Source of the DNA: a virus
Direction: 5' to 3' (one strand)
Virus record (IMG/VR): IMGVR_UViG_3300045988_159911
Length of the DNA stretch: 64,000 nucleotides
The notes beneath the pieces are model-generated. The model did no database searches, was not told the origin of the DNA, and saw nothing but the letters and a program-made list of their open reading frames with translations. Both the position numbers and the translations under genes were made by a program. Below, in pieces: positions 1,490-63,888 of the stretch. Numbering within the stretch: the first letter of the stretch is position 1; the number at the start of each line of letters is the position of its first letter.

Positions 1490-3402
1490 TCTTTCATTGC
1501 CTCCGCATAGGAATACCACTGGCGAGTGTTAAACTCACGGAAGCGGTCTTTGGAATATGCTCTTGAGGGAACGAGGTAACCAACGATTCGCTGATATGTA
1601 TCAAATACAGGTTCACCACAGACAGGGCAATGATCTGTGCCAACAAAGCCGTGATGGTTCTTGCACTCGTTGATGCGTGTGTTGAATGCAAAGTAAATTA
1701 CACCAGACTGCGCGATCTTGTTGAGCATCTGCCAAGCGGTATCTGTATTGGGGAAATTTGCCTCCAGATTGATGTGTGCAATACTACCACCGGAACACTT
1801 TTCATCCAGAATGGAGCAAAGGCGCAGCTTCTCCTGAATGGTGCATTTCTCAGACAGAGGAATCCACTGGTTTGAGTAAATAAACTTCTCGTCCAGATCG
1901 TAGATCACATTGTCCTTCTGGCACAGAATGATAGCAGCACGCTCTGCAGGAACGCTCTCAATATTGAAAGAATAGTCATCGGTGAAGCTATCCTTGACTT
2001 CATTGAGAACCTCGAAGATTTTGCTTGCGAATGCAACACCCTCATCAGTATAGCTCACATAACCGAACTCGTCGGTAGTTGTGTAGCCAAACTTTTCGAT
2101 AACCTCGTACAGACCGAGAATACCCATTGTGCAATACTGCTTATCCATCTCAACTGCACCGTCCTGATAGTTGGGAAGCAGACCCTTTTCCACATTACGC
2201 GCAATGATGTGGCGCACGGTATCAAGAGTCTTGCAGCAAAGCAGAGCACGCTTCTTGAGCAGAGCAAGATATTTCTTCTCGTCACACTCAGTCTCAAGAG
2301 CAATACGCATCAGATTGATGGTGTTAACCTTGACAGAACCGATGGACAGTGCAGTACCACCGATGGAGTTGATAAAGGCGTTCAGCTTGGAAGTGTCAGA
2401 CAGCAATCTGCAGCAGTTTGAGAGTGTATTGACATCTCCGCTGATGAAGAAATTGCTGTCATTCCAAGTGGTATTATGGTCAGAGCACCAACGGGCAAAC
2501 TCTTCGTCCACAAACTTACCGTCTCGGTACAGCAGGCTGTAGGTCAGCACAGGGAATGTAAACATATTCTCGCTGCGGATCTGCGACACAACTTCCATAA
2601 ACATCTTCTGGTGTTCGATCAGTTCTTCCACGCAGTCGATGACATAAGTACCATCGGGATACTGTACGCCGCCAAACAGGGACTCAATGTAGTTATGGTC
2701 AAAGATAGATACATTGACAAAAGCGGTCTGGTCGATACGCATGAAAGGCTGATTGAGACGATAGATGAACTTCTGGAAGCACTGACGGATATAGTAGTCT
2801 TTATCCTTGATGATATATCCGTTTTCACAATCCTTCTTCCAGAAGTAGTAAGTCCAGATCAGCACATTGGGGATGCCGACGGCACCGGAAGAACGATTGC
2901 TCATGTAGCTGATATACTCAATCACATCGTCCATAAATGTGGTGAGGTGTTTGGGTGCCTGATTGTTATAGTTCTTGAGGAAGAACAGACCTTCAGTTGC
3001 CAGGCGAGTCAGATCATAAGCGTAGCAATAAGGCAGATATGTAGAAGTAGATGCATCGTGTAGATAGAAGCCGCCATTGTATTCGGTTTCCAGCCACTCT
3101 TTTGCGGTACGCAGATTATAGCGTTTCTTCATCTCATAGAAGATTTTGTTGAATGCAAACAGCTTGTCCAGAGACTTACCCTTTTCATTCAGCAGGCTAC
3201 GGATATCCTTGTTTGATGCGTTGGCATTAGCATCAATAGTAACATCTGCAACATTCTTATCGATAAACCCATCGATAAAGTCGGAGAAGTTAAGCTGAGT
3301 TTCATGGAAGCCGTTAAGGAACTCAAAGTCTTCTCCGTATCGTTCGTTCAGCGCATACATCGCTTTTTCAAAGTCTTTGTTCATTTTAATAGGAATGTTC
3401 AT
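1486..3402 (-). CDS. nrdD: Anaerobic ribonucleoside-triphosphate reductase NrdD
   Basis: 638 aa; C-terminal zinc and glycyl-radical region GFVGTDHCPVCGEP...RIVGYLVPSRAYSKDRFREF is typical of class III RNR. Confidence 0.85.
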   Translation of the reverse strand: MNIPIKMNKDFEKAMYALNERYGEDFEFLNGFHETQLNFSDFIDGFIDKNVADVTIDANANASNKDIRSLLNEKGKSLDKLFAFNKIFYEMKKRYNLRTAKEWLETEYNGGFYLHDASTSTYLPYCYAYDLTRLATEGLFFLKNYNNQAPKHLTTFMDDVIEYISYMSNRSSGAVGIPNVLIWTYYFWKKDCENGYIIKDKDYYIRQCFQKFIYRLNQPFMRIDQTAFVNVSIFDHNYIESLFGGVQYPDGTYVIDCVEELIEHQKMFMEVVSQIRSENMFTFPVLTYSLLYRDGKFVDEEFARWCSDHNTTWNDSNFFISGDVNTLSNCCRLLSDTSKLNAFINSIGGTALSIGSVKVNTINLMRIALETECDEKKYLALLKKRALLCCKTLDTVRHIIARNVEKGLLPNYQDGAVEMDKQYCTMGILGLYEVIEKFGYTTTDEFGYVSYTDEGVAFASKIFEVLNEVKDSFTDDYSFNIESVPAERAAIILCQKDNVIYDLDEKFIYSNQWIPLSEKCTIQEKLRLCSILDEKCSGGSIAHINLEANFPNTDTAWQMLNKIAQSGVIYFAFNTRINECKNHHGFVGTDHCPVCGEPVFDTYQRIVGYLVPSRAYSKDRFREFNTRQWYSYAEAMKE

Positions 3403-3412
3403 AGTTCACCTC

Positions 3413-26994: not shown

Positions 26995-27483
26995 TCAATG
27001 GTTATCGTTATCGGTGTGCAGCGTTACACCGGCACCGAAGATAAATTCCTTGATGTCGGTATTGTACTCATGCAGGAAATCATCCAGAGTACGATAATCT
27101 TCGCGACTCTGATGGTCAATATAACCATCTGAAGGATCAAGCCAAAGCCCCTTGCAGTTTGCATATTCTGCAACGACCTCATTGATACGGTCAAAATCAC
27201 GCGTTTCAATGAAGTTCTTAATATCCTCTTCGTTGGTTACATCATCATAGCACGACTCGTTACAGCCATTCAGGCAGCGAGCCATTGTCAGCAGATAGCT
27301 CAATCTGGTTTCCTGATCGGTGTAGTCCCAGACCTCCCAACCAAACTCGCCAAACTCTGCATGGACATATCCGTCCTCGCTGACATACAAATAATTGGTG
27401 GACAATCCCTTACTGTGGTCAACGGTCACAGAATGGGTGCTACTGGAGTTTGTTTCAAAAACTCCTCTGCGAATTTGTTTCAT
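26995..27483 (-). CDS. Member 1 of a paralogous family with the conserved N-terminal motif RRGVFETNSSSTHS
   Basis: MKQIRRGVFETNSSSTHSV...; paralogs at 42898..43194 and 43359..43916. Confidence 0.5.
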   Translation of the reverse strand: MKQIRRGVFETNSSSTHSVTVDHSKGLSTNYLYVSEDGYVHAEFGEFGWEVWDYTDQETRLSYLLTMARCLNGCNESCYDDVTNEEDIKNFIETRDFDRINEVVAEYANCKGLWLDPSDGYIDHQSREDYRTLDDFLHEYNTDIKEFIFGAGVTLHTDNDNH

Positions 27484-27737
27484 TACTTTTCAGCCTCCTT
27501 TACATCAAGCTGTGCGGCAAGATCCAAGGCGCGGCACTTCCAGGCATCTGCATCTGTAACTACGCAATCCTCTCCGACTGCCAAGCCAACAACTGCTTCG
27601 TCCTGATAATGGTTGTCCTTAAAGAACGAAACCCTCAGCTTCATAGGCTCCTGAGTGTCGTCGTAGTCTACAACAATGCTGTCGCATCCCGCAGCCTTGT
27701 TCGGGTCGATGTTCAATTCTCCAATTCGTCTGTACAT
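27483..27737 (-). CDS. Hypothetical protein
   Basis: 84-aa ORF. Confidence 0.3.
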   Translation of the reverse strand: MYRRIGELNIDPNKAAGCDSIVVDYDDTQEPMKLRVSFFKDNHYQDEAVVGLAVGEDCVVTDADAWKCRALDLAAQLDVKEAEK

Positions 27738-42897: not shown

Positions 42898-43194
42898 TTA
42901 ACCGTCTCTTCCGTAGGTGCCAAAGGCAACCATCTTATCACCACTCGGCGTAGTAAAGCGATGGGAATAAACATCAAGTGAGTACCATCTGTTATCGCCG
43001 AGATTTTCGTAGGTGCAATACTGACCGTCTTCATCCTCAGTGAGGATAGAGGATTTCGGAACCAGCTTTTCGCCCCAACTGTCATACATCAGCTCACCGC
43101 GCTTAAACTTCTCATACTCGTCTTCGGTGCAAATGGTGATGCTATGAGTGGAACTACTGTTCGTTTCGAACACGCCGCGTCTAACCTGCTTCAT
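42898..43194 (-). CDS. Member 2 of the RRGVFETNSSSTHS family (short form)
   Basis: MKQVRRGVFETNSSSTHSI...; only the N-terminal 18 aa are shared with the other two members. Confidence 0.45.
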   Translation of the reverse strand: MKQVRRGVFETNSSSTHSITICTEDEYEKFKRGELMYDSWGEKLVPKSSILTEDEDGQYCTYENLGDNRWYSLDVYSHRFTTPSGDKMVAFGTYGRDG

Positions 43195-43358
43195 TATTCC
43201 AATCCTTTCTTTCTGGTGGTGTCCTTTTCTCGATTACGGTCATATGCCTTTTTATTCGGGACGGACTGTGTTACTGGGCGAGCGCAAGTCCAGAAGTTCC
43301 GAAACTTTTTAGCATACTCTTTCTTCTGATTTTTCTCAGTCATGTGCTCGCCTCCATT

Positions 43359-43916
43359 TTAATTTCCTTTGTAATACTCCTCGTGAGGATAAAGTGCATG
43401 GATATCTACATCCATATCACTATTATCGTTTCCGGTGAGTACAAAACTGTCTTCAGAGAAGAGATACCGCAAAAGGCGCCCCTTATTACTTGTAGTCTTA
43501 TCCACAAACCTTTGGTGATCATCTTCACCGCAGTGGTCTACACTTGCATTTACCACATAGGAACCGCTTCCGTAATTGTGGTATACAGCCTCGTCGAACT
43601 CACACTCGACACCAACACTGTCAAGAGTTTCCATGATAAACGCCATGACATCTTGTGCTTTTTCTCTGCTGTAAAGACTCAGAAAACTGGCATAAAGATA
43701 TGCCGCCTTTTCTTCAGGGGTGTCAAGCCGATCAAAACCCCAACCAAAATCTTCACATCGGAAGATAAGTTTGGCAGGGTAAGAAAGTTCCGTGTTACGA
43801 TTGGTTGCAATACAGATGCTGTGGGTGCTGCTGGAGTTTGTTTCAAAAACACCGCGCCGTTCCTGTCTCATTAGGTTTCTCCTCTCGTTCGTATTTGAAA
43901 AGAATTCGTAATCCAT
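43359..43916 (-). CDS. Member 3 of the RRGVFETNSSSTHS family
   Basis: ...RQERRGVFETNSSSTHSI... with further similarity to member 1 (FGW, LTGNDN versus LHTDNDN). Confidence 0.5.
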   Translation of the reverse strand: MDYEFFSNTNERRNLMRQERRGVFETNSSSTHSICIATNRNTELSYPAKLIFRCEDFGWGFDRLDTPEEKAAYLYASFLSLYSREKAQDVMAFIMETLDSVGVECEFDEAVYHNYGSGSYVVNASVDHCGEDDHQRFVDKTTSNKGRLLRYLFSEDSFVLTGNDNSDMDVDIHALYPHEEYYKGN

Positions 43917-44032
43917 TATATATCTCTTAGTGTTCTGTAAGAGATTATGATGCAGAAGAACACACGAAGTGATCTCCGCACGATCCTTTAGGATCGAAGC
44001 AGATCACGAGTGTGAAAAGTAACAAAACCTTA

Positions 44033-44052
44033 CTTCGATTTACAATACGAAG
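44033..44052. repeat. Hairpin CTTCG-ATTTACAATA-CGAAG, copy 1 of the conserved-loop hairpin family
   Basis: Perfect 5-bp stem with the conserved 10-nt loop. Confidence 0.5.
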
Positions 44053-44263
44053 CGACTGCCTCTATGTATTGACTGTGTATGGCAGACCATGTGCATTATA
44101 AATTCTTTTCGGTTGTTTATCGTTCGCAACCTGAATAAAGTGCTTTTGGATCTATCAAGAGCTTTTTGAGACGCCTCGTCGCGAAAAGCTCTTTATCGAT
44201 TCAAAACATCTTTATTTGCAGCGGGGCATGGGGTTTACCCCAGATAAGCTTCTCAACCCTTTA

Positions 44264-44283
44264 CTTCGATTTACAATACGAAG
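44264..44283. repeat. Hairpin CTTCG-ATTTACAATA-CGAAG, copy 2
   Basis: Identical hairpin about 230 nt from copy 1 in the same intergenic region. Confidence 0.5.
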
Positions 44284-44334
44284 CCACCCTATGTATTAAA
44301 GAAATGGGTAAATGTCCGTTGCAAACGCAAAATA

Positions 44335-44928
44335 TTACTCGTGGAAGTGGAACATAACCTCTTCCATTTTGCCAGGTCTTAAAGCCGAAACATAGATCTT
44401 ATCGAAAGCCCATGTTCCAACCTCGGGATCGTCTCCCCGGTAATCGCCACCGCCCTGACCGTTGCCGATACTGGTGAGCAGAGGCAGAGGATTGATACAC
44501 CAACCCTCTTTGTCTTTGTTTTCTGCCACATACTTTTCCATGTCGATGTAGCAATTTCTTGTAATGTTCACAATGAAGCAATCCGCCTCATCATTGGAAA
44601 GCTTGTACTGCGGCAGCTTTCTATCAATCGGCGTGATAACCTCTTTTCCATCACTCCAGAGAGTATTGTAGAGCCGCATGAAATCCTTGCGGTCTGTGAT
44701 AAAAGCATCGCTGAAGCAACACTCATCATCAACTACGCTGTCAGCATAATCGCCGACCCACGCCAGTCGCTGAGGGGTGCCGTCAAGGTTCTGAAGAACT
44801 GCGTTAACGAAATCATTTCCAACCCAGGAATGTTCCATGAGCTTCAGACCGTTGCCGTAATCGTGAGAATAGGCAGTCTGTTTGGTTCCGTCGTCTGCAA
44901 TCAAGAGTGGCTTGTAATACTGACCCAT
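44335..44928 (-). CDS. Hypothetical protein
   Basis: Internal ATG 44928 with RBS AAGGTAGG gives MGQYYKPLLIADDG... Confidence 0.4.
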   Translation of the reverse strand: MGQYYKPLLIADDGTKQTAYSHDYGNGLKLMEHSWVGNDFVNAVLQNLDGTPQRLAWVGDYADSVVDDECCFSDAFITDRKDFMRLYNTLWSDGKEVITPIDRKLPQYKLSNDEADCFIVNITRNCYIDMEKYVAENKDKEGWCINPLPLLTSIGNGQGGGDYRGDDPEVGTWAFDKIYVSALRPGKMEEVMFHFHE

Positions 44929-44969
44929 AGTGAAACCTACCTTTCTTCCTCGCTTTTGAAAAATCGTAA

Positions 44970-45056
44970 TGGTACGGATAGTGGGACTTGAACCCACACA
45001 TCATTGCTGACATTAGCACCTGAAGCTAACGCGTCTGCCAATTCCGCCATATCCGC
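44970..45056 (-). tRNA. tRNA-Leu(CAG), type II
   Basis: Reverse complement is GCGGATATGGCGGAATTGGCAGACGCGTTAGCTTCAGGTGCT...GGGTTCAAGTCCCACTATCCGTACCA, close to E. coli tRNA-Leu(CAG); CCA is encoded. Confidence 0.75.
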
Positions 45057-45229
45057 ATATTTCTTTGGTCGGCTTCCCGCTTAGATTGTCACATCGTCTA
45101 CTTGAGAGTAAAGGTCTCGTTCGCAAACAACCGTGTATACCCGATTGCTCCGCAGTTTTCAGCGGACATTTTCATTCTCTGTGTGGTAAGCCGATAATCG
45201 CACACATCATCTGGGAGCTACCCAGCCAC

Positions 45230-45320
45230 TGGCGGAGCAGATAGGACTTGAACCTACACACCCTTTCGGGCTACTCACGGTTTAGCAAACCGCTGCCTTA
45301 CCAATTAGGCTTACTGCTCC
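45230..45320 (-). tRNA. tRNA-Ser(GCT), type II
   Basis: Anticodon loop TTGCTAA, long variable arm, T-loop GGTTCAAGTCC, CCA encoded. Confidence 0.75.
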
Positions 45321-45324
45321 ATAA

Positions 45325-45400
45325 TGGAGCTGGTGGACGGATTCGAACCCCCGACCTACTGATTACAAATCAGTTGCTCTACCGACTGAGCTACACCAGC
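45325..45400 (-). tRNA. tRNA-Thr(TGT)
   Basis: GCTGGTGTAGCTCAGTCGGTAGAGCAACTGATTTGTAATCAGT...GGTTCGAATCC...CCA. Confidence 0.8.
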
Positions 45401-46015
45401 ATCTCTTTGTAGGGTTTTTCGCGCTTCTGCAGATTTCCACGCCTTGTCCTTACCGTTTATCCCTATTGCCACATGGGATCACAGACCCTAAACACTTCTG
45501 CTCTATGCCGGTTGTGTTCTGATACCGGAAAACATTCTGGGGACTTTATTTTGCCTTGTTGCTCCAGCCCTCAAGGGTAACTCGGCAAGTGGCTTGCCTA
45601 TTTGGATCTTGGTGCCATCATCTCAGCCATACACTCCGGCCTAAACCTAAGTTTGCCAGAACCTCTCCAAATGCTCCTATGTATGCCGTCCTCGCCTCTG
45701 ACTGAAATGATGTGCCGACACCTTCCATACCGTCTCACTTGCAAAATAAAACAAACTACGAACGGGGTGTGGTAAGCACATACCACCCAAACCTCTGCTT
45801 AGTCCCGCCGGTTCTGGTTTACGACATGGTTTGGTGCTCATGCCCTTGAGCTATTAGGCTATTTAACTATCTCTCACCGGCTTGATTTGCTTTTGTTGAG
45901 GCGGTGCCAGAGCACGCTGCTCATATCCCGTTATCTTCCGCCCATCGTAGTCGATGACCCAGCCACTATATATCATTTCAAGTGGGCTTTTCCCATACCG
46001 CCTAAAGCGTATGGC

Positions 46016-46125
46016 TGGTGGAGAGGGATGGATTCGAACCACCGAAGCTTAATTGACCACACGGCGCCCCAAGTCAAAAAGCGGAGATTTACAGTCCCCG
46101 ACTTTGGCCACTTGTCTACCTCTCC
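46016..46125 (-). tRNA. tRNA-Tyr(GTA)-like gene with an abnormally long (about 39-nt) variable region
   Basis: Canonical acceptor stem (GGAGAGG/CCTCTCC), anticodon arm GGGGA-CTGTAAA-TCTCC and T-arm GGTGGTTCGAATCCATC plus CCA are all present. A 39-nt variable insert makes the whole 110 nt. Confidence 0.4.
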
Positions 46126-46283
46126 ATGTGTTTGCCAGCTCCTGCACCTTGTACTTCGGCATCGTCACTGGTAAAAGGATTACGGTGCAGGCACCGTCGT
46201 TCCCCAAAGGCTAACCCTTTTCCGCAGGATTTAATAAAGCATACGCAATGAGCTATTAACTCACTGACCGCGACTCACTTACT

Positions 46284-46359
46284 TGGTGGAGATGGTCGGG
46301 ATCGAACTGGCGACCTCCTGCTTGCAAGGCAGGCGCTCTCCCAACTGAGCTACATCCCC
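46284..46359 (-). tRNA. tRNA-Ala(TGC)
   Basis: GGGGATGTAGCTCAGTTGGGAGAGCGCCTGCCTTGCAAGCAGGAG...CCA; the G3:U70 Ala identity pair is present. Confidence 0.8.
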
Positions 46360-46473
46360 GTATGAAATGATTGTTTTATACACTGTAGATATATTGCAAA
46401 CCATGCCGTAAAGCCCAAAATCAAGGGCTTTACTGACATAGTTAAAACGAAAGATTTTTGGTTTTCCTCCCGT

Positions 46474-46983
46474 TCAGCGCTTGGACACCCGCTTATCCTG
46501 CACCAGACGCTTGAACTTTGTGCCACTTGCTTCGATGTATTCGTCGATCAATTTGCTCTGACTTTTGGTTTCAGCATAAGCTGTGATGGTAAGGGTTTTG
46601 CGCTCCCAATCCATTGTGTAGCTATCACTCGCCACATTGGTAATCTTGTTCTCTGCCAAGAAATCTCGGAGCTTCATCATTTCCTCTTTATCATCTGACA
46701 TGATGACATTCACATAGGTTTTCTCTTTGGAAAACTTATTGTTGAACGCAACTGCCAAACAGCACCCTACGCCGCTTGCAATGGAGACCACTACAAGAGC
46801 GAGGGTGCTGTCGGTAGTTACGATATCTTTCGTGATGCTAAGGTAGATGAAGTTTGACAATCCAAGAGCTAAACCGGCGAGAACACATCGGTTTCTTTGA
46901 ACCAAAATGGTCTTTGCTGTCCCCAGTGCATTATCGAAAACTTTTGCGACGAACAGCGCCGCCAGATATAACCATGATGTCAT
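46474..46983 (-). CDS. Membrane protein (possibly DUF2179/UPF0316-like)
   Basis: N-terminal transmembrane helices followed by a soluble C-terminal domain; 169 aa. Confidence 0.4.
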   Translation of the reverse strand: MTSWLYLAALFVAKVFDNALGTAKTILVQRNRCVLAGLALGLSNFIYLSITKDIVTTDSTLALVVVSIASGVGCCLAVAFNNKFSKEKTYVNVIMSDDKEEMMKLRDFLAENKITNVASDSYTMDWERKTLTITAYAETKSQSKLIDEYIEASGTKFKRLVQDKRVSKR

Positions 46984-47016
46984 TCTCTCATCTCCTCTTC
47001 ATCAAACTATGTATGC

Positions 47017-48510
47017 TTAGTGCTTGTCAGCAATCGCGCCGCCCAGCATACCGGACAGCACGGCCATCAGATCCAGGCCGGTTGCATCCTTGAAACCATC
47101 CTGAACCTGCTTCATGCCGGTGGTAACGGCGCCGGTCAGAGTGGAAGTACCACCCTCGTAGATGGTCATGTTGTCGATACCCTCCATAGGCTTAGCAACG
47201 GCAGCGGCAATCTCAGGCATGGTCTTGACATACTCCATTGCCACATCCAGAACCATCTGCTGCTTAGCAGCGTCGCCGTATTCCTTCATAGCTTCTGCCT
47301 TCTTCAGAATGCCTGCAGCCTCAGCCTCTGCCTTAGCCTGAATGGCCTCGGCTTCAGCACGACCCTTGGCAGCGATACCGGCAGCTTCGTTTTCCATTGC
47401 CACACGAGCAGCTTCGGAACGAGCCTTTTCAGCAGCAGCTCTCTGCTCTGCCTCAAACAGCTCTGCAGCAGCCTGCTTCTGACGCTCGAACAGCTCAGCC
47501 TCAGAAGACTTCTGAACCTCATACAGCTTTGCATCAGCTTCCTGCTGTGCAGCGTACTTATCGGCCTCAGCCTTCTTCTTGATCTCTGCATCCAAAGAAC
47601 GCTCACGGATAGCAACCTCGCGCTCCTTCAGTTCGATTTCCTTTTCCAGACGAGCCAGGTTGGCTTCGGCTGTCTTGGTTTCGATGGATGCACGCTGCTC
47701 CTGCTCCTGAATTGCATAGGCAGCATCTGCTTCTGCTCGCTTGGCGTCCTCAATCTTCTTCAGCTCAGCCATCTGAATGGCAAGCTCGTTCTGACGCTTA
47801 GCAATCTCCTGATCGGACTTAACCTGAGCCTCGTTGGCAGCCATAGCAGCCTGAGCCTGAGCAATAGCAATCTCCTTCTCTGCCTGAGCCTTGGAAATTG
47901 CGGCGTCCTTGGAAATCTGAACAGTGTTCTCCAGACCGAGGTTGTCGATCACGCCGTTGCGATCCTTGAAGTTCTGAATGTTAAAGGTAGTCAGCTCCAG
48001 ACCCATATCGTTCAGGTTGGGAGTAACATTCTCAATGATACGCTCGGCAAAAATCTTCTTGTCACCCTGGATCAGTTCCTTCAGAGTGGTCTGAGAAATG
48101 ATCTCACGAATATTACCCTCCAGAACAGGAGTAATGATTTCGCGAATCTGATTGGGATTATAGCCAAGGAATTTAGAGGCTGCGACCTTCAGCATATCAG
48201 GATCTTTAGCGATGGACACATTGGCTACTGCGTCAACCATAATGTTGATAGCATCCTTGGTGGGGATCTCATCGCGAGAAGTGAAGTCAGACTGAATGTT
48301 TTCCAGAGACATATAGTCGACACGCTGGATGATAGGAATAACCAGTGCGCCCTGACCGATAATTGTTCTTGCACCACGGGGGCCGGTGATGACCATTGCC
48401 ACATTGGGAGGTGCTTTCTTATACATAACCTTGCCAATGAAGATCAGAAGAATGATTGCGACAAGGATGCCGACACCGGCGGTTGCGTAAGGCAAAATCA
48501 TTTCGAGCAT
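47017..48510 (-). CDS. Flotillin/SPFH (band 7) family protein, FloT/YuaG-like
   Basis: N-terminal transmembrane anchor, SPFH domain (VMVITGPRGARTIIGQGALVIPIIQRVDYMSLENIQ) and a long EA-rich coiled coil (AEAEAIQAKAEAEAAGILKKAEA). Confidence 0.65.
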   Translation of the reverse strand: MLEMILPYATAGVGILVAIILLIFIGKVMYKKAPPNVAMVITGPRGARTIIGQGALVIPIIQRVDYMSLENIQSDFTSRDEIPTKDAINIMVDAVANVSIAKDPDMLKVAASKFLGYNPNQIREIITPVLEGNIREIISQTTLKELIQGDKKIFAERIIENVTPNLNDMGLELTTFNIQNFKDRNGVIDNLGLENTVQISKDAAISKAQAEKEIAIAQAQAAMAANEAQVKSDQEIAKRQNELAIQMAELKKIEDAKRAEADAAYAIQEQEQRASIETKTAEANLARLEKEIELKEREVAIRERSLDAEIKKKAEADKYAAQQEADAKLYEVQKSSEAELFERQKQAAAELFEAEQRAAAEKARSEAARVAMENEAAGIAAKGRAEAEAIQAKAEAEAAGILKKAEAMKEYGDAAKQQMVLDVAMEYVKTMPEIAAAVAKPMEGIDNMTIYEGGTSTLTGAVTTGMKQVQDGFKDATGLDLMAVLSGMLGGAIADKH

Positions 48511-48553
48511 TAAGTTTTCTCCTTTATATTCTTGTGATTGGTGACTACGGATT

Positions 48554-48967
48554 TCACTTCTTTACTACCACATCGTTCTCACCCCTTCCAAGTACGCGAG
48601 GGTAATAGACCCTGTTCTCCATCTTCTCTTCGGCTTTTCTCGTTTTGCCGAGAACCTCTTTGAGAAGATTGACTAACTGCCGACCCTTGTCTGTATTTAG
48701 ATACTGAACCAATGGTTCAAGAATCATCGTGGTGTCCTTATGTTCGCGCCGCTCCTGCCGGCACTTTGCAAGTTGCGTTGCGATTTTTGCTCGCTCCTCG
48801 TATTTCAATCCGTCAAGTTCCAGGCTGTGCAGATAATCCTGTGTGAGCTTGTCCATCTCAACGATCTTATCGCTATTCCATTGGTAGTCCTTGATGGCTT
48901 CATCAAACATTCTGCAGACGCTGCTGATGTTTTCGGAGAATGATGGGTTTTGCTTCTGCTTTTTCAT
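48554..48967 (-). CDS. Hypothetical protein
   Basis: 137-aa ORF. Confidence 0.35.
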   Translation of the reverse strand: MKKQKQNPSFSENISSVCRMFDEAIKDYQWNSDKIVEMDKLTQDYLHSLELDGLKYEERAKIATQLAKCRQERREHKDTTMILEPLVQYLNTDKGRQLVNLLKEVLGKTRKAEEKMENRVYYPRVLGRGENDVVVKK

Positions 48968-48969
48968 AC

Positions 48970-49653
48970 CTACACACCTCCGAGCGGGAGAACCCTACGA
49001 TAAAGAGCTGTGTGTCTATCATCAATGTCTAAGTCGACATGATAGTGACCAAAATACCAATGCTTAAACCTGCAATTTTCCTCTACAAACTGCAGAAAAC
49101 TGGTGACCGCGTCGTTCTCATACCAACTTGCAATTTTGGCCTGTATGCTTTTGGATGCACAATGCGTAACTATGTAATCAACACACCAGTTGTGCTTTTC
49201 GAGCGTTTCAACAGCGTGTTCGAACTCTGCTTTGCTCGGGATTTCTTCTTCCCACCAAGATATATTTGGCTTTCTCAAATGCTTGTCATGAGATGATGCC
49301 CCGCCCATGCAGAACACCTTAGCTCCATCAATTTCAAACACCTCGCCACGCATCAAATGAAACAAGCTTGGCTGAATTTGGTGAACTGACCCGCCATACT
49401 GATTTACAATGGGGAACTCTGCGAGCATTCGGTGGTTTTCATGGTTGCCATCCACAAAAAGAGTGGTGAATGATTTTTCTTCGTACCACTTCTGCCAGTA
49501 TCGGTCACATTTCGACCCGTCCCAAACACAACCAAAATCCCCGCATACAATTAGGGAATCGTTTTTGCTCATGGACTTTTGTTGAGGGAAGTTTCTCATT
49601 GCAAGCTTATGAATGTCGATATCTCCATGAGTATCGCCAGTGATATAAACCAT
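48970..49653 (-). CDS. Calcineurin-like metallophosphoesterase
   Basis: MVYITGDTHGD...VCGDFGCVWDG...VDGNHENH metallophosphatase motifs. Confidence 0.7.
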   Translation of the reverse strand: MVYITGDTHGDIDIHKLAMRNFPQQKSMSKNDSLIVCGDFGCVWDGSKCDRYWQKWYEEKSFTTLFVDGNHENHRMLAEFPIVNQYGGSVHQIQPSLFHLMRGEVFEIDGAKVFCMGGASSHDKHLRKPNISWWEEEIPSKAEFEHAVETLEKHNWCVDYIVTHCASKSIQAKIASWYENDAVTSFLQFVEENCRFKHWYFGHYHVDLDIDDRHTALYRRVLPLGGV

Positions 49654-49677
49654 CCGTTCACCCCTTTCCTTTTCGTT

Positions 49678-50010
49678 TCATCTGTAATCTACAAGTACAC
49701 CCGTCTTCTTGAGGAAGCTCTGGAGGGACTCCTCGTCGAGAGCTGAGGCTTCGTGAACCGTGAGTTCGGGATTTCGCATCGGGTCGGTGAGCGAGAAAAC
49801 CCTTGTAGTTACAGGGGTTTTCGAGTGTTTCCGAGTGAGGAAATTTATTTATTTCCTGACCCTGCGAGCAGTGTCATCTCTTGCGCCGGGCGGATTCGCT
49901 GGAGGCGCCTGCCGCAGCGGCGTGCCCCTGGTATTTCCCCCCGGCCATTCGTAACTCCGATTTACAATACGGAGCATTAACTGAAACAGTTAATAATGCA
50001 TTACAGATGA
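49678..50010 (-). repeat. Inverted-repeat-bounded structured intergenic element, copy 1 (about 333 nt)
   Basis: Perfect 11-bp terminal inverted repeats: tcatctgtaat at 49678-49688 and attacagatga at 50000-50010. Contains the GGTATTTCC...CCATTCGTAAC-hairpin-...ATGCATTACA module. Confidence 0.55.
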
Positions 50011-50022
50011 TATTTTCTGGAT

Positions 50023-50577
50023 TTATCTCCAGTGAATTAGATACAAACTGTATTCCTCAGACTCAAGATCCTCGGCGAGTCTGAAGCCGATTGCTTCATA
50101 CTGTGCCCAAATCGCAGACCAGTCGATATAGTCCGTGATTTCGTCTTTGCTGATAAAGTCGAGGATTTCCTTGGTGATACCTGTGTCGAAAGGAACGCCA
50201 AGTTCGGTAGCTATGTAACAGGCGGCGAGTTCTTCGTTACCCATTTTCCAAGTGACCTCGGAAAGATCTTCAAACATGAAGTCATTTTCTTTGATGCGGC
50301 GGACAAATTCTTCGTCTTCAAGTTCTCCATCAACGGCATCCATAATCAGCGCAAGAAGTTCAGCCGTCATACCGGGATTCTCGCTGTTGATGTCGTCAAT
50401 AACTTCATTCAACTCCCAAACATCCATCGTTTGGATACCGGGAATAGACGGCGTACTGTCGATGATGACATACTCGTTTTGGCGATTCAGTTCAGAGCGA
50501 ATATTAGATGGGATCGTGACAGTCTTATCCGCGCAACCGTCATCCCAGTCCTGCAGTTCAAGTTCCAGTTTAATCAT
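50023..50577 (-). CDS. Hypothetical acidic protein
   Basis: 184-aa ORF flanked by the repeat elements. Confidence 0.4.
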   Translation of the reverse strand: MIKLELELQDWDDGCADKTVTIPSNIRSELNRQNEYVIIDSTPSIPGIQTMDVWELNEVIDDINSENPGMTAELLALIMDAVDGELEDEEFVRRIKENDFMFEDLSEVTWKMGNEELAACYIATELGVPFDTGITKEILDFISKDEITDYIDWSAIWAQYEAIGFRLAEDLESEEYSLYLIHWR

Positions 50578-50606
50578 TTGCCATCACCTCTTATTGTTTT
50601 GTTTGG

Positions 50607-50949
50607 TTTCTTTGTAATCATTACATATATATCCTGATTCCCTTCAGTGCGATCATCGCTGGGATGCCAATCCCAGTTCTGTCGTCATCTGATGTGATTT
50701 GGACTTCTTGCAGTTGGGAAACCACCTAATTCCGAGGTCTTAATTGGTGTTTTGCACGGAATTATTTATTTAGTCTTGGTTCAACCGCCGGAGACTGGGT
50801 GCCTCTTGAGGTGTTAACGCGTTGACGGCCGGCGGAGCTGCGGGCGTCACCAGTGGTGGGCTATGTATTTCCTCCCGACCATTCGTTACTTTGATTGACA
50901 ATACAAAGTGCTACTTGCCAAAGACAAACAGCTATGCATTACAAAGAAA
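50607..50949 (-). repeat. Inverted-repeat-bounded structured intergenic element, copy 2 (about 343 nt)
   Basis: Perfect 12-bp inverted repeats: tttctttgtaat at 50607-50618 and attacaaagaaa at 50938-50949. Both arms carry the same substitution (CTTTG instead of ATCTG), so they have covaried. Confidence 0.55.
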
Positions 50950-50955
50950 TTTGGT

Positions 50956-51150
50956 TTAGAATATTGCTTGTTCGTACTGTGCTTGGGTTATTTCGCCGTT
51001 CTTGCAAAGAGCGTCAATCCAGCACGACCACTCAAACTGAACCTTACAGTAGTCGTCCTGACGCGCTCTCAGGTAGGCTTTATAGTCACCGCCGAACGCT
51101 TCGTCGATGAATCTTCTTCTCAGGGTTTTTCGTCTTTGGCGTCTATACAT
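50956..51150 (-). CDS. Hypothetical small protein
   Basis: 64-aa ORF. Confidence 0.3.
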   Translation of the reverse strand: MYRRQRRKTLRRRFIDEAFGGDYKAYLRARQDDYCKVQFEWSCWIDALCKNGEITQAQYEQAIF

Positions 51151-51839
51151 TATCCGTTGTCAACCTCCTCGGCAAAGAAAGTTTCGTTCATATATGCCAG
51201 AACACGGTCGGCATATCCACTCGTGCCCGGGCTACCAGTGTTATAGCAGGTAAGGGCAGACTCGACCGACCCGTACTTTTCTATCAATTCGGCAAGCAAA
51301 TCGCATCCGACTCTGAAGTTTGAAAGAGGATCGGAAAGGTCTGTCACACCAAGCCGCTCCATTCTTTCCTGGTGCCAACGAGGCTGAACCTGCATATACC
51401 CGATGCTGTTTCCATTGTCGCCATTTACATTCCTGTATGTGGACTCACGGAAAATAACCGCCAAAGCAAGCTCATAAGGGCAGCCTGTTTCTTCACAAGC
51501 TGCCCATACAAGTTTCTGCAATTCATATTCAAGGGAAATATTTTCGTAGTATCGAAATGTCTCTTCCGGTTCCGGTTCTGGGGTGGGCTCTGAAACTAAC
51601 ATGGTTTCGCGTGGAATATACACCGGTGGAACAACCATCGGTTCAAGTTTTAATGGAATAGTTTCGTATGTATCGCTGATAGCAGGAGTTGGGATTTCCG
51701 GCTCAGCATCTGCAGCCGGATTTGAAAGGCCACATAAAACCACGGTTACGAATGCCAGAAAAAGCAGCATTGCGATGATATGCGGAAACCGTCTGTGAGA
51801 ACGGCGCCGTCTTCGTCTTTTCTGATACAAGGGTAACAC
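51150..51839 (-). CDS. Lytic transglycosylase (SLT domain) with an N-terminal membrane anchor
   Basis: AVIFRESTYRN...SIGYMQV SLT catalytic motif; N-terminal transmembrane helix. Confidence 0.6.
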   Translation of the reverse strand: MLPLYQKRRRRRRSHRRFPHIIAMLLFLAFVTVVLCGLSNPAADAEPEIPTPAISDTYETIPLKLEPMVVPPVYIPRETMLVSEPTPEPEPEETFRYYENISLEYELQKLVWAACEETGCPYELALAVIFRESTYRNVNGDNGNSIGYMQVQPRWHQERMERLGVTDLSDPLSNFRVGCDLLAELIEKYGSVESALTCYNTGSPGTSGYADRVLAYMNETFFAEEVDNG

Positions 51840-51864
51840 TCCTCTCTTGTGACCGATGCTGAAA

Positions 51865-53010
51865 CTACTGGTTGAGATCCTCGCTCATGCTTTTCATAAC
51901 ATCGGTGTGGAACTTCTCATTGTTGTACTTGATTACGCTATCTACATACTCTTTTTCGACCATGCTGTAATAGTTGACCAAACCACGCAGAACCTGTACA
52001 TCGTGCAGATCCCAATGGCGACCATTCTGCCGGTCGAGAATGTAGTTGCAAATCATTGCCCGCAAGCGCTGTTTGTTCTTATAACCAATGGTGATCTCAT
52101 TATCCTTATTGAGCATCACACCGAGGTTCCAATTACTTCCAGCGCGTGAGCCATAGCGCGTCTTTTCGTCTTTGATCTTAAAAGGAGCACCAAACTCTGC
52201 GAGGGTAGAATTGATAAAGCCGATGATTTCATCCTTATCAAAACCCTTACGGCTTGAAAAGAGAGAGTCATCGGCATATCTGGTATATACATAATGATTT
52301 CCATTGAAGTCGCGCAGGCAATTGTTGATACGATGGTCAATGGGAATCATCATCAGATTCGTGAGCATAGGGGAAATAGGTGTTCCCTGCGGGAGACCAC
52401 CGTTCAGGAAACACAGATCCAACGCTTTTTCCAAAGCATCAAATCCGCGCTGAGATTTTACGATCTCGCTAAATGGAAATACTTTGGAAAGCATAGACAT
52501 CAGGAACTTCGGAGTTGTGCTGCCAAAGAAGTCAGAGAAGTCGGTCTTGAGGAACCAATGACTCTCATTCTTCTGATGACGCTTTACCGCGTCGATGGTA
52601 GATCTTCCGGGAACATAAGCAAATGCGCTGGTATGATACAGCGCAAACATCTGGGTTTCAAAAATCGTTTTCAGATTTCTGAGCGCATTCATCAGCGCTG
52701 GCTGCGGCGCATTGATCTCACGCAAGCCACCGGACTTCTTAGGGATATAGAACTTATCGTAGAGGTCGCTGCGCTTTGCCTCGTAAAGTTTAGCGTTCTG
52801 CTTGCAAAACTCTTCCAAGGTTACGACCATTGCATCAATATCAAAACGCTCAAGGAACTTGGGGTTCAGAACTTTGGAAAAGTAAGTTCTTGTGTTGGTC
52901 TCATTGGGGTTGACCATGTTGGCGAGATTGACATTCCCCGAAATAATTTCATCAAATGTGATCTGATGGAAAATCGGAGACTGCATCAGCGTAATGTAAG
53001 GCACTTCCAA
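51865..53010 (-). CDS. Reverse transcriptase, retron/DRT-like (not DGR-type)
   Basis: RT motifs IPKKSGGLREINAP, LKTDFSDFFGS, GLPQGTPISPMLTNL (QGxxxSP) and YTRYADDSLFS (YADD). The ORF begins at a TTG; a GTG at codon 3 sits 7 nt after RBS GGAGG. Confidence 0.8.
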   Translation of the reverse strand: MEVPYITLMQSPIFHQITFDEIISGNVNLANMVNPNETNTRTYFSKVLNPKFLERFDIDAMVVTLEEFCKQNAKLYEAKRSDLYDKFYIPKKSGGLREINAPQPALMNALRNLKTIFETQMFALYHTSAFAYVPGRSTIDAVKRHQKNESHWFLKTDFSDFFGSTTPKFLMSMLSKVFPFSEIVKSQRGFDALEKALDLCFLNGGLPQGTPISPMLTNLMMIPIDHRINNCLRDFNGNHYVYTRYADDSLFSSRKGFDKDEIIGFINSTLAEFGAPFKIKDEKTRYGSRAGSNWNLGVMLNKDNEITIGYKNKQRLRAMICNYILDRQNGRHWDLHDVQVLRGLVNYYSMVEKEYVDSVIKYNNEKFHTDVMKSMSEDLNQ

Positions 53011-53031
53011 ACCTCCTTTTTCATTATTCGT

Positions 53032-53358
53032 ATCTGTAATCTACATACTCTGTGATGAGATGACCAGATCAGCTCAGGATACTCGTAGATCTTCAGATTC
53101 CTGGATTCGGACATCTGATGGCTATGAAGTAACGGTGAACTCCTGGTTGTGCAGGTAATGAGTCTTGGATTTCCTGTGGTTCCTTAAAGTTTTCTTCAGG
53201 AGACACTGATGAAACTCTTGACTTTTGCTGTATAACCTGCGATGCTGCGACCGAGTCGCTGCAGCGTTTCTGGGTAGCCGGGTATTTCCCGTCCACCATT
53301 CGTAACTTTGATTTACAATACAAAGCACTTCCTATTCGGGAAGTAATGCATTACAGAT
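53032..53358 (-). repeat. Inverted-repeat-bounded structured intergenic element, copy 3 (about 327 nt), directly upstream of the reverse transcriptase; candidate msr/msd-like ncRNA locus
   Basis: 9-bp inverted repeats: atctgtaat at 53032-53040 and attacagat at 53350-53358. Shares the conserved module and hairpin with copies 1 and 2. Confidence 0.5.
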
Positions 53359-53363
53359 CTCGT

Positions 53364-54245
53364 TTACATCTTTTTCAGAATCGCAAAGAACTCCTCTTCA
53401 TCAATCTCGATGATCTCCTGTGGAGCACTGAGAACCTCATAGTACCCATCGCCGTCAGGCTCATCTGAGATTAGGATTTCAGGATTGAGTTTCAAAGCTG
53501 GGCGCACCCCCACACAATCGCCGCAAGCATAGGCATCGCTGAAATCGCCATCGCGATTAACGCAACGCACATTGTACGAGTCGCCAGAGTTCGGGGAGCG
53601 CAGGTAGTAGTACCACTCCTCGTCTTCATATTCGGGCTTGTCATTATTGGGAGTATTGGCGTACAGTTCGGGAGAGAACAGGCAAGCTCTGTTTGCACCG
53701 TCCGCAAACAAATCCCAAACCTCGCCCTCCTGAATGCGGTTTTCAGTTCCACCGCCCACATTGGTTCTGGAGGGCATGAAAACCTTAGCATAAATGGTTT
53801 CATACTTTTCGCCACCAGTAGGAATATCCTTGGTAGGCAGCGCCGTTTTGATCTCGGACTCCTCAATGGCTTCGACTTCCCACTCCTCAAAGTAGTGCAG
53901 GAAACCAGGCTTTTGAACATAACCGTAGCGACCATTGTACATCAGGCGATCTTCAGGAGCCGTGTCGTGTTCGTGTGTCGGACGGAACCAGTCGGTGCCC
54001 TCGGCATTCAGGAACTGATGGCCGTTACTTAAGGAGTAGCGGTTGTTACCGTAACTCCTGCGGTATTCGTCGGGGTTATCGGACTCTTTTGCATCAAATG
54101 CACACTGATCTTCCATAAACTCGGTCAAGATCGTGCCGTCGCGATGAGCCTTTACCCAGCAAATCTTATGCGGCATCTCACCGCTGACGCTATAAGCGCC
54201 GAACTTCAGTTTTGCCCCGATGGGCAGGTCTGCGATAGTAGGCAT
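53364..54245 (-). CDS. Hypothetical protein with a DUF1566-like C-terminus (possible adhesin or receptor-binding domain)
   Basis: C-terminus WYYYLRSPNSGDSYNVRCVNRDGDFSD...GVRPALKL resembles the VRCVR/GVRP signature. Confidence 0.35.
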   Translation of the reverse strand: MPTIADLPIGAKLKFGAYSVSGEMPHKICWVKAHRDGTILTEFMEDQCAFDAKESDNPDEYRRSYGNNRYSLSNGHQFLNAEGTDWFRPTHEHDTAPEDRLMYNGRYGYVQKPGFLHYFEEWEVEAIEESEIKTALPTKDIPTGGEKYETIYAKVFMPSRTNVGGGTENRIQEGEVWDLFADGANRACLFSPELYANTPNNDKPEYEDEEWYYYLRSPNSGDSYNVRCVNRDGDFSDAYACGDCVGVRPALKLNPEILISDEPDGDGYYEVLSAPQEIIEIDEEEFFAILKKM

Positions 54246-60050: not shown

Positions 60051-60082
60051 GACCGGAGTCGTCGCAAAACCGTTTCGGTCTG

Positions 60083-60134
60083 CTCTGCATTTACACGGGC
60101 TTGCAACCGTTTTGGAAACCCAAAGCTGCATTAG
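60083..60134 (-). repeat. Conserved-flank, covarying-hairpin motif, copy A
   Basis: CTCTGCATTTACACGGGCTTGCAACCG, hairpin TTTGGaaacCCAAA, then GCTGCATTAG. Confidence 0.45.
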
Positions 60135-60214: not shown

Positions 60215-60303
60215 TGGCGGAGAGGGTGGGATTCGAACCCACGGAGGTTTTACCCTCGCCGGTTTTCAAGACCGGTTCCTTAAACCAGCTCGAACACCTC
60301 TCC
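60215..60303 (-). tRNA. tRNA-Ser(TGA), type II
   Basis: ...GGAACCGGTCTTGAAAACCGGCGAGGG...GGGTTCGAATCCCACCCTCTCCGCCA, similar to E. coli tRNA-Ser(TGA). Confidence 0.75.
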
Positions 60304-60307
60304 TTAT

Positions 60308-60535
60308 TCAATAGATGGCGACCGTTTTGGTGAACAGAAGATACAGACCCAGGGGAGCAGTCAGCAGAACTGCGGTTGCATCTTTATCTTCAACCGTGGT
60401 TCCCTGAGAAGCTATGTAAATGAGCAGGATGCTCATGGCGATCAGCGCCAAACCATAAAGCTTCTGGATAAACAGCTTCTTGCGACGGATCTGATTGCGG
60501 GTTCTCTTACTAACAGCTTGCGTGCTCATTTTCAA
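60308..60535 (-). CDS. Small two-helix membrane protein
   Basis: 75 aa with LALIAMSILLIYIA and LLTAPLGLYLLF helices. Confidence 0.3.
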   Translation of the reverse strand: MKMSTQAVSKRTRNQIRRKKLFIQKLYGLALIAMSILLIYIASQGTTVEDKDATAVLLTAPLGLYLLFTKTVAIY

Positions 60536-61337: not shown

Positions 61338-61410
61338 GTGACATGAGCAAGGCTCGAACTTGCGACACGCCGGTCATATCCGGCTGCTCTACCGACTGAG
61401 CTATCATGCC
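61338..61410 (-). tRNA. tRNA-like gene, putative anticodon TAT (Ile-AUA?), with a non-canonical G32-A33 anticodon loop
   Basis: GGCATGATAGCTCAGTCGGTAGAGCA-GCCGG-GATATGA-CCGGC-GTGTC-GCAAGTTCGAGCCTTGC-TCATGTCA. The acceptor, D, anticodon and T stems are all perfect, but the loop lacks U33 and no CCA is encoded. Confidence 0.4.
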
Positions 61411-62300: not shown

Positions 62301-62317
62301 ATCGGATCGTTTTTCAA
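62289..62317 (-). promoter_or_regulatory. Sigma-70-like promoter (TTGAAA, 17 nt, TATAAT) on the minus strand
   Basis: Minus strand reads TTGAAAaacgatccgatttgtgcTATAAT, lying 17 nt downstream of repeat copy C. Confidence 0.5.
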
Positions 62318-62333
62318 TTCAAGACCCTGCCCA

Positions 62334-62388
62334 CTCTGCGTTTACACGGACTTGTGACCGTTTGCAAAACCTTTGCAAGTCGCATTAG
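62334..62388 (-). repeat. Conserved-flank, covarying-hairpin motif, copy C
   Basis: CTCTGCGTTTACACGGACTTGTGACCG, hairpin TTGCAAaaccTTTGCAA, then GTCGCATTAG. Confidence 0.45.
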
Positions 62389-63262: not shown

Positions 63263-63830
63263 AGTTCTTACTCCTTTATGGTTTATTTATGGGCAAGCCC
63301 ATAATGAAGCGCAGTAACCCTTGTGGAGCTACTGCGCTCGATATAGACTTGCGTAGCAAGGGCAAGCCCCTGCGCGCATAAACTTTTTGGTTGACAAATC
63401 ATGCTCGCTCAAGTAATTCCCCTGGTCGCCTTACACCTGCGCTATACACCTCCTTGAAGCTTTCACGCATAACACCCAACTCTACCACGATAGAGGCATC
63501 CTTGATACCTAAACCGCTTAACGGCTTTATCAAATGCTGCTCAGAAACCAGGCTGCATAAGTGAGCCAACACTTATTCACTTGCGCTTATTCATATCGCT
63601 CAAAGGTCATAGTGACTATAACCTATTGCCGAGAACTCAATACTACCCGCGTTCAGTATCCGCGCACTCTGAGCCTAACTCTCAGAATTTTTGGCTGACC
63701 TTCTCTTATGGCGGTTGAAGCCGCACTCGTGGTAAGAGTACCCTTCTTTTGGTGGCAAAAGTACCCCTTGTGTATGCCCATCAAGGTGGCGCGTTGGATC
63801 GCTCAACCAAGTAAAAACCTGGTCGAACCA

Positions 63831-63888
63831 CTCTGCATTTATACGGGCTTGTGACCGTTCGCCGGAAACCTCCGGCAAGCTGCATTAG
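63831..63888 (-). repeat. Conserved-flank, covarying-hairpin motif, copy D
   Basis: CTCTGCATTTATACGGGCTTGTGACCG, hairpin GCCGGaaacctCCGGC, then AAGCTGCATTAG. Confidence 0.45.

Follow-up and report, generated by a model that had tools for sequence, protein, structure and literature searches.

A short hairpin with a seemingly constant loop occurs five times in a 64,000-nucleotide stretch of DNA from an uncultured gut phage (IMG/VR record IMGVR_UViG_3300045988_159911, hereafter the window), in which every open reading frame (ORF) lies on the minus strand. On that strand, the gene strand, each hairpin is one stem-loop (P2) of a non-coding element of 205-343 nt, and we consider it probable that the five elements specify paralogous retron-type (msr-msd-like) non-coding RNAs (ncRNAs) that share a single reverse transcriptase (RT) and a retron-type mechanism. 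The elements have a common plan, consisting of a terminal inverted repeat (P0), a G after its 5′ arm and another before its 3′ arm, two hairpins (P1 and P2), and a variable 3′ part. This structure, its covariation, its strand specificity, the uniformity of the distal part of P2 within each genome, and a strict co-localization with the RT gene are seen over about 90 related phage contigs, with 2-6 copies of the element per genome.

Within the window, the exact word ATTTACAATA occurs four times on the plus strand (at 44038, 44269, 49960, and 53311; 0.13 expected), and the hairpin pattern CTYYG-ATTKACAATA-CRRAG occurs five times (44033-44052, 44264-44283, 49955-49974, 50889-50908, and 53306-53325, as copies 1 to 5) against 0.00 expected from 100 shuffles. 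The bare loop word with one mismatch allowed is not enriched (9 copies versus 4.8 expected), and the signal therefore resides in the loop word together with its complementary flanks. A preliminary description of the window had reported these five copies with the same sequences, and the shuffles bear it out, although it placed copies 3 and 4 (at 49958-49977 and 50886-50905) 3 nt away from their true positions. The stems (CTTCG/CGAAG twice, CTCCG/CGGAG once, and CTTTG/CAAAG twice) are complementary and compensated between copies, as it had said; each hairpin is one pair longer than it stated, since a further pair, G.U or A-U as read on the gene strand, closes it and makes a 22-nt unit.

Three of the copies fall, again as described earlier, inside elements bounded by inverted repeats (E1, E2, and E3; Table 1). 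Of the two copies in the 43917-44334 region, which had been taken as degenerate, one belongs to an element at 44122-44326 (B1) that is likewise bounded by an inverted repeat, of 9 bp, and has the most canonical retron msr-msd shape among the five; the other belongs to an element at about 43897-44110 (B2) with only a non-canonical closing stem. A covariance model run on the window with filters off returned exactly these five elements and no others; among the intergenic stretches of the region that do not hold tRNAs, the five in which they lie are the largest. E1 to E3 have diverged (65% mean column identity) and are alignable in their 5′ domain only, which on the gene strand reads YUGUAAU-G-CAU, P1, P2, UWACGAAUGG, and a purine run; they also have the 3′ end UGUAG-AUUACAR in common, and the arms of E2 differ from those of E1 and E3 by a compensatory change from C-G to U-A. 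The purine run after P2 (GGGAGGAGG) is strongly Shine-Dalgarno (SD)-like, and the 3′ arms end 10-35 nt ahead of the next ribosome-binding site (RBS), that of E3 stopping 15 nt ahead of the RBS GGAGGT of the RT gene. A small ORF starting from an ATG after P2 was considered and rejected; its product would have 11 aa in E2, 24 aa in E1, and about 70 aa in E3, and other members of the family do not consistently keep the ATG.

A scan of IMG/VR with the hairpin pattern returned 12 stretches from 8 contigs, and relatives of the RT were found in 70 viral loci and in 28 contigs from gut metagenome-assembled genomes (MAGs) of humans, ruminants, horse, rabbit, chicken, and termites, the bin taxonomy of which was inconsistent, as is expected of phage contigs. 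A covariance model of the 5′ domain (R1, followed by R2 built from 59 hits) gave 109 matches in 69 sources and 50 matches in the 28 MAG contigs, which form an independent set. Each locus of the closest relatives carries 4-5 copies of this hairpin, with their order kept. Conservation in related phages had been set beforehand as the check on which the motif should stand or fall, and it was found. Among GenBank phages, there was no close relative at the DNA level and none above 43% at the protein level; in Rfam 15, only tRNAs were matched, both in the whole window at the gathering threshold and in 43800-53500 at E≤5.

Across the family, 83 of 89 distinct elements have a P0 stem of at least 7 bp whose end falls exactly before the conserved G, and in 72 of the 89 this stem reaches at least 9 bp (23% and 3.6%, respectively, in shuffled controls); its length is 7-15 bp. 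Its arms occur in 20 variants, including UGUAAU/AUUACA, UGCAAU/AUUGCA, UGUAAC/GUUACA, UGUGAU/AUCACA, and CACAAU/AUUGUG, and the terminal stem therefore covaries. The register used here places a G after every 5′ arm (GCAU, GUAU, GAAU, or GGAU), and 80 of 83 elements have a G immediately preceding the 3′ arm (AG in 65 of the 83). For P1 and P2, 98.9% of cells are paired, compared with 74.7% in shuffles and 23-45% with slid partners. The gapless alignment of 44 distinct P2 22-mers fits the structure ((((((.(((...))))))))) with 99.0% of cells paired and with double changes at seven of the nine pairs, including the three within the supposed loop (106 compensatory cells versus 29). The loop described earlier as invariant is indeed constant within the closest clade; elsewhere, the 10 nt are no loop at all and resolve into one bulged nucleotide, a covarying 3-bp helix (AUU/AAU, GCC/GGC, ACU/AGU, GGU/ACC, and others), and a triloop. 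The version in the window, UAUUGUAAAU, parses as a U bulge followed by AUU, GUA, and AAU; the distal ends in other clades include C-GCC-AAA-GGC, U-ACU-GUU-AGU, and A-GGU-UUC-ACC. P2 is followed by a conserved single-stranded GUAACRAAUKG and the purine run, and then by a variable, template-like region.

The distal part of P2 is identical among the paralogues within a genome and differs between genomes; P1, P0, and the 3′ part vary within a genome. Such uniformity is what a shared recognition factor encoded by the genome would bring about, and the distal P2 fits the role of an identity element for such a factor, most likely the RT. The specificity of retron RTs for an msr stem-loop was reportedly established by Inouye and co-workers in the 1990s, and a genome-specific distal P2 agrees with it. 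The hairpin is real and under selection, and it is neither a terminator, as the preliminary description had said, nor a duplex operator. The proposal of a hairpin recognized through its loop sequence can be kept in part: an RNA hairpin recognized by a protein is the most likely form, with the RT as the best candidate, and this hairpin is a module of a larger RNA and not a free-standing structure.

The closing pair of P2 is G.U in 34 of the 44 distinct hairpins, and its further U.G pairs are C.A mismatches on the opposite strand. Since the G.U pairs allow only the RT-sense strand to fold in this way, the functional form is RNA, or else the RT-sense strand alone. An action of the elements at the DNA level, be it as a cruciform or operator (the other option of the preliminary description), a phage promoter, a replication or packaging signal, a PeSL-type recombination hotspot, or an element resembling miniature inverted-repeat transposable elements (MITEs), is accordingly very improbable. 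Such an action could account for terminal inverted repeats as bounds, for the dispersal of the copies in an early plastic region where the intervening genes differ among relatives, and for a plus-strand loop that holds TACAAT and TTGACA-like hexamers. However, the half-sites vary around a constant "spacer," the reverse of what an operator would show; the abundant G.U pairs work on one strand only; and all copies have a single orientation, every match to the covariance model lying on the RT strand. MITEs were rejected because target-site duplications of at least 3 nt flank only 1 of 56 elements (CCAAA around E2), the same as in controls, and the copies have themselves diverged, as noted above for the three long ones. 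Promoter- and terminator-like sites are no more frequent than in shuffles, and a consistent arrangement of -35 and -10 boxes was not seen: TGTAAT lacks the -11 A and belongs to a covarying stem, the plus-strand TACAAT and TTGACA-like hexamers have no consistent partner, and TACAAT is missing from the hairpin in other clades.

The positions of the elements tie them to the RT gene. Matches are found some 300-360 nt ahead of the RT start, directly after the RT stop, often again behind that second site, and 6-8 kb further on; the element immediately upstream of the RT is present in essentially every RT locus examined, across RT identities from 98% down to 47%. The same layout was found in a locus reached via a different protein (L113; ENA contig k141_134797). 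Tandem elements without a gene between them are B1-B2 in the window and the two elements between the RT and a metallophosphoesterase (MPE) gene in L022, L025, and L113. Since such tandems have no intervening gene and the gene after the last element varies, the elements are not leaders of particular genes. These same facts weigh against a purely cis-acting role, in which the elements would be regulatory or processing RNAs of an early operon that are never reverse transcribed and the proximity of the RT would be mere synteny; P0 would then be an RNase III-kind site, P1 and P2 would be binding sites for RNA polymerase or a phage protein (as translational operator, mRNA stabilizer, or put-like antiterminator), and the C-rich stretch of the long elements would serve in Rho loading or as a spacer. 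We regard this as unlikely, yet it has several points in its favor: (i) the genes on either side of the elements belong to a single long, co-directional transcription unit, (ii) their 3′ arms end shortly before the next RBS and an SD-like purine run follows P2, (iii) the variable part of the long type is C-rich and G-poor relative to coding sequence and weakly structured, i.e., rut-like, and (iv) the cDNA of the retron reading is deduced. Against it stand, in addition to the tandem arrangement and the position upstream of the RT, the invariant opposing Gs, which are characteristic of retrons and are not known to function in put RNAs or RNase III sites, and the unrelated phage MarsHill (below), which has the same design beside a retron-like RT.

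The RT itself belongs, by its sequence, to the retron/retron-like clade and is under purifying selection. It matches Pfam RVT_1 (1e-19); in PADLOC, its best matches are all retron RTs (RT_II-A, 1e-48; I-A, 1e-41; III-A, 3e-39), and in the PDB, they are the RTs of retrons Ec83 and Ec78 (2e-22, full length). Other models match more weakly (group II intron, 3.5e-24; Drt2, 7e-12). YADD and the other RT motifs are invariant in 20 family members. A diversity-generating retroelement (DGR) was considered and rejected: self-BLAST at word size 7 found no repeat between the elements and any gene, and with no template repeat/variable repeat (TR/VR) pair, the system is not a DGR.

The elements could also serve the RT in a non-retron mode, as templates or cofactors without a 2′-5′ branch, for example, as a scaffold with an internal template as in defense-associated reverse transcriptases (DRTs) or as an RNA for priming on or modifying phage DNA. 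Several observations suit such a mode, namely the divergence of the RT, which falls below family cut-offs, departs from the retron consensus at NAxxH and VTG, begins with an additional stretch of about 70 aa at its N terminus, and gives weak, partial Drt2 and Drt3a matches, together with long-type elements without an msd hairpin and the absence of an effector. We nevertheless consider it improbable, more so than the cis-acting role: the best full-length matches are to retron RTs (1e-48 versus 7e-12 for Drt2), the closing stem, opposing Gs, and two msr-like hairpins together form a retron-specific anatomy, the short-type elements are canonical in shape, and a neighbor resembling the debranching enzyme Dbr1 is sensible only given a 2′-5′ branch.

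The retron reading is best judged against the described hallmarks of msr-msd RNAs, which are hybridizing terminal repeats, 1-3 msr hairpins, and a long, stable msd stem-loop (Mestre et al. 2020, PMC7736814), and in the type IA/IIA1 consensus also two opposing G residues at the a1/a2 end (PMC7736814, Fig. 2B). The elements have hybridizing terminal repeats, msr hairpins (P1 and P2), and opposing Gs, and they are contiguous, on the same strand, with an RT of the retron clade. The msd stem-loop is present in the short-type elements (about 215 nt), where long, very stable hairpins abut the 3′ arm (mean z -7.8), and absent from the long type. The centers of the long type (about 200 nt) fold with a mean z of only -1.05 versus shuffles (14 of 50 below -2), are rich in C and poor in T (A.29, C.30, G.22, T.19; background C.21, T.25), and cannot be aligned between relatives. 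Hypervariability driven by the RT was rejected: the center is 71-88% identical to that of L087, adjacent coding DNA being about 80% identical, and relative to L083 it is indel-rich; for these centers, the comparisons suggest weak constraint and we claim nothing further.

Several observations weigh against a retron-type mechanism. E1 to E3 and their orthologues lack a long, stable msd stem-loop, and the closing stem of B2 in the window is degenerate: the sole one found encloses TATAATG and extends into the next ORF. The orthologues of B2 in relatives have a canonical stem, e.g., GTTCTGTAAT|G...G|ATTACAGAAC in L016. L019 departs from the rule of one identity element per genome, its short-type element keeping GAUUGUAAAU and its long ones having UGUUAUUAGC. 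In the RT, the match to NCBIfam retron_St85_RT (2e-54, 184.7 bits) is below the cut-off of 235, and the retron motifs are only partly kept, NAxxH (NAKIH in Ec83) being AVKRH and VTG being NLG; the H of NAxxH, described as the most conserved residue (PMC7736814), and the G of VTG are both kept and invariant in the 20 family members. Several ncRNAs per RT are not a described feature of retrons, and we found no description in the literature of phage or viral retrons of such a family. PADLOC recognized no retron effector among the neighbors, the MPE giving only a weak PDC-S10 match (7.7e-06). According to one survey, about two thirds of annotated retrons likewise have no extra ORFs (PMC7736814), and an effector is therefore not strictly defining.

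The module conserved around the RT can be written [E]-RT-[E]-[E]-MPE, and an MPE gene follows the RT in 43 loci. In Foldseek, the 227-aa MPE had just three matches at E≤1e-3, all of them Dbr1, and its sequence profile matches Dbr1 alone, non-significantly (E 0.46); it lacks the Dbr1 C-terminal domain and the Dbr1 motif-I cysteine. Judged by its modeled structure, the MPE thus appears closest to the 2′-5′ lariat-debranching Dbr1, a lead that fits the retron reading and not a demonstration of it. DBR1 is the enzyme used to remove the 2′-5′ link of retron RT-DNA (PMC8989520). The very acidic 184-aa protein encoded between E2 and E1 is confined to the 9 closest loci and is probably not core to the module; no Pfam, PADLOC, or PDB family was matched, and likeness to ArdA, a guess by eye, received no support from Pfam and PDB profiles. 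The gene just upstream of E3 (53364-54245, minus strand) encodes a Hoc-like DUF6273 protein whose C-terminal YYLRSPNSGDSYNVRCVNRDG... resembles typical DGR variable-region domains. In L113 (5322-5944 of k141_134797), the RT-elements-MPE module is followed, at a distance of about 600 nt, by genes for a PhdYeFM-like antitoxin (a faint match) and a Fic-domain protein and then by isochorismatase and phosphoribosyltransferase-like genes; the module there thus occupies an accessory, possibly counter-defense, region.

Table 1. Coordinates of the elements and genes of the module in the window, and of the closed units of phage MarsHill (locus coordinates)
Feature	Position	Strand	Length	5′ arm	G after 5′ arm	Opposing G	3′ arm	P1	P2	Remarks
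E3, retron-like ncRNA	53032-53358	-	327 nt	53350-53358 (ATCTGTAAT)	53349 (putative branching G)	53041	53032-53040	53327-53344	53305-53326 (GCUUUG-U-AUU-GUA-AAU-CAAAGU)	Directly upstream of RT; model match 53276-53356, 75-79 bits; P2 is copy 5 of the preliminary description
E2	50607-50949	-	343 nt	50938-50949 (TTTCTTTGTAAT)	50937	50619	50607-50618	50910-50932	50888-50909 (variant UAUUGUCAAU)	Upstream of acidic protein gene
E1	49678-50010	-	333 nt	50000-50010 (TCATCTGTAAT)	49999	49689	49678-49688	49976-49994	49954-49975	Upstream of MPE gene
B1, short type	44122-44326	-	205 nt	44318-44326 (GTTTGCAAC)	44317	44131	44122-44130 (GTTGCGAAC, one G.U)	44285-44310	44263-44284	Hairpin of ~90 nt follows P2 and ends at opposing G
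B2, short type, degenerate closing stem	about 43897-44110	-		44101-44110 (GAAAAGAATT)			43897-43906 (AATTCTTTTC)	44054-44087	44032-44053	Long hairpin about 43955-44005; 31.5 bits (covariance model)
RT, retron-type	51865-53004	-	380 aa							Probable GTG start at 53004 after RBS GGAGGT
MPE	48970-49653	-	227 aa							Last gene of module
Acidic protein	50023-50577	-	184 aa							Between E2 and E1
MarsHill closed unit	765-939
MarsHill closed unit	982-1175
MarsHill closed unit	1177-1385
MarsHill closed unit	1390-1559

We infer the following course of events for a retron-type mechanism. The five RNAs would be transcribed from the minus strand within phage early transcripts, and all of them would be served by the one RT. 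The terminal stem, equivalent to a2/a1 of retrons, would juxtapose the G after the 5′ arm and the G before the 3′ arm, and the RT would recognize the 5′ domain, in which the 3-bp helix and the triloop at the distal end of P2 would provide the identity specific to each genome. DNA synthesis would be primed from the 2′-OH of the G after the 5′ arm and would copy the variable region from the opposing G, possibly giving several different branched RNA-DNA molecules per infected cell. The Dbr1-like MPE may then cut the 2′-5′ branch and free single-stranded DNAs (ssDNAs), and their biological role might be early anti-defense or exclusion.

A parallel is found in Staphylococcus jumbo phages, whose retron-like RTs (MarsHill gp206 and relatives) are the nearest cultured relatives of the RT at about 30% identity. 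The authors of the MarsHill genome hypothesized an ncRNA within the 1.2-kb non-coding region upstream of the RT (bioRxiv 10.1101/2020.12.14.422802). In that locus (L111; MW248466, 213186-218917), five tandem units of about 170-210 nt form an array (760-1760 in locus coordinates) upstream of the RT coding sequence (1904-3409). A pair of hairpins is present in every unit; the stem of the second covaries (GATCATA or CATTATA), its loop, TGAATACG, is invariant, and variable, GC-richer long hairpins come after the pair. A stem of 10-15 bp closes four of the five units, and in these four a G succeeds the 5′ arm and another precedes the 3′ arm. The MarsHill RNAs have no sequence similarity to the elements of the window, the R2 model giving no match.

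Retrons are understood as bacterial anti-phage systems composed of one RT, one ncRNA, and one toxin. Here, the RT is kept in about a hundred large gut-phage contigs without a toxin and with several cognate RNAs that carry a genome-specific recognition hairpin. If these RNAs are reverse transcribed, the phages would make defined ssDNAs early in infection, which raises the question of what purpose a viral multicopy single-stranded DNA (msDNA) has. As a more tentative proposal, which we think could be correct but hold to be less likely than not, these phages might possess a "multi-template retron," in which one early RT serves 2-6 RNAs addressed by the genome-specific hairpin and the MPE frees several different ssDNAs that are used either offensively, as decoys or inhibitors of host defenses or competing phages, or for phage DNA transactions; it would be carried by large gut phages of a widespread family and, independently, by Staphylococcus jumbo phages. 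If true, this would be the first retron that serves a virus's own infection cycle and the first debranching enzyme of the bacterial world tied to msDNA. Reverse transcription of these RNAs would also provide natural examples of one RT with several templates, with an identity element mapped by covariation, which would be useful for multiplexed retron editing, and the Dbr1-like neighbor suggests that a debranching step may occur naturally.

The window as a whole encodes a DNA polymerase, a DnaB-like helicase, NrdD, a methyltransferase, a tRNA nucleotidyltransferase, and six to seven tRNAs, and it contains other repeats. A second family of four copies of about 46 nt (60066-60111, 60281-60326, 62317-62362, and 63814-63859), which hold CTCTGCATTTACACGGGCTTGyrACCGTT on the plus strand, lies in intergenic gaps of the early region of small ORFs upstream of the RT module; these repeats may be early promoters or another regulatory motif. 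A 58-nt repeat occurs in three copies that are 62-79% identical (27434-27491, 43145-43202, and 43822-43879) at the 5′ ends of minus-strand genes, one of them the phrog_28997 gene that follows B2, which suggests paralogous N-termini or a shared translation-initiation region. Two tRNA-like genes on the minus strand are odd: 46019-46125 matches the tRNA family of Rfam over 107 nt (38 bits), was not called by ARAGORN, and may hold an intron or long insert, and 61338-61410 is given by ARAGORN as "tRNA-???" with a two-base anticodon call. The SPFH/flotillin-like gene at 47017-48513 (minus strand, 497 aa) has an equally long antisense frame and 33-nt periodic repeats at 47429-47586, and it is probably the composition of these repeats that gives rise to the antisense ORF.

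Among known systems, DGRs with their TR-Sp RNA likewise combine a phage RT with an adjacent non-coding template RNA, and the DUF6273 gene resembles DGR targets; here, however, there is no TR/VR pair in the window, the RT is of the retron type, and there is no Avd. The put RNAs of phage HK022 and other cis-acting two-hairpin RNAs of phages also place two adjacent conserved stem-loops in early transcripts, with repeated copies per genome and activity in the sense orientation. A closing stem with opposing Gs, an association with an RT, and an enclosed variable region of 200 nt are features that put RNAs lack, and no sequence or Rfam similarity to them was found. The retronphages phiR73 and phiR67 (Ec73 and Ec67) show that retrons can reside on phage genomes, in those cases on temperate phages or satellites and as host defense with an effector. 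The present system is likewise carried by a phage genome, but the retrons of phiR73 and phiR67 have a single ncRNA in a small temperate phage, whereas here multiple ncRNAs lie in the early region of a large phage without an effector. With retrons of types I-A/II-A1 (Ec78, Ec83, and Sen2/St85), the system has in common an upstream ncRNA on the same strand, terminal repeats, opposing Gs, two msr-like hairpins, and, in the short-type copies, a long, stable hairpin beside the 3′ arm. It differs from them in having 2-6 ncRNAs per RT, some of them kilobases away, in its location within an early operon of large (about 100-150 kb), apparently virulent gut phages, in the weakly structured, C-rich region of about 200 nt that replaces the msd hairpin in the long copies, and in its RT and neighbors (altered NAxxH/VTG, N-terminal extension, Dbr1-like partner, and no recognizable effector). 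The MarsHill array is alike in design and differs in that its units are strictly tandem and all upstream of the RT, that its RT has an N-terminal domain of about 200 aa, and that host and phage lineage are different; because it is found in a cultured phage, it makes the idea testable now.

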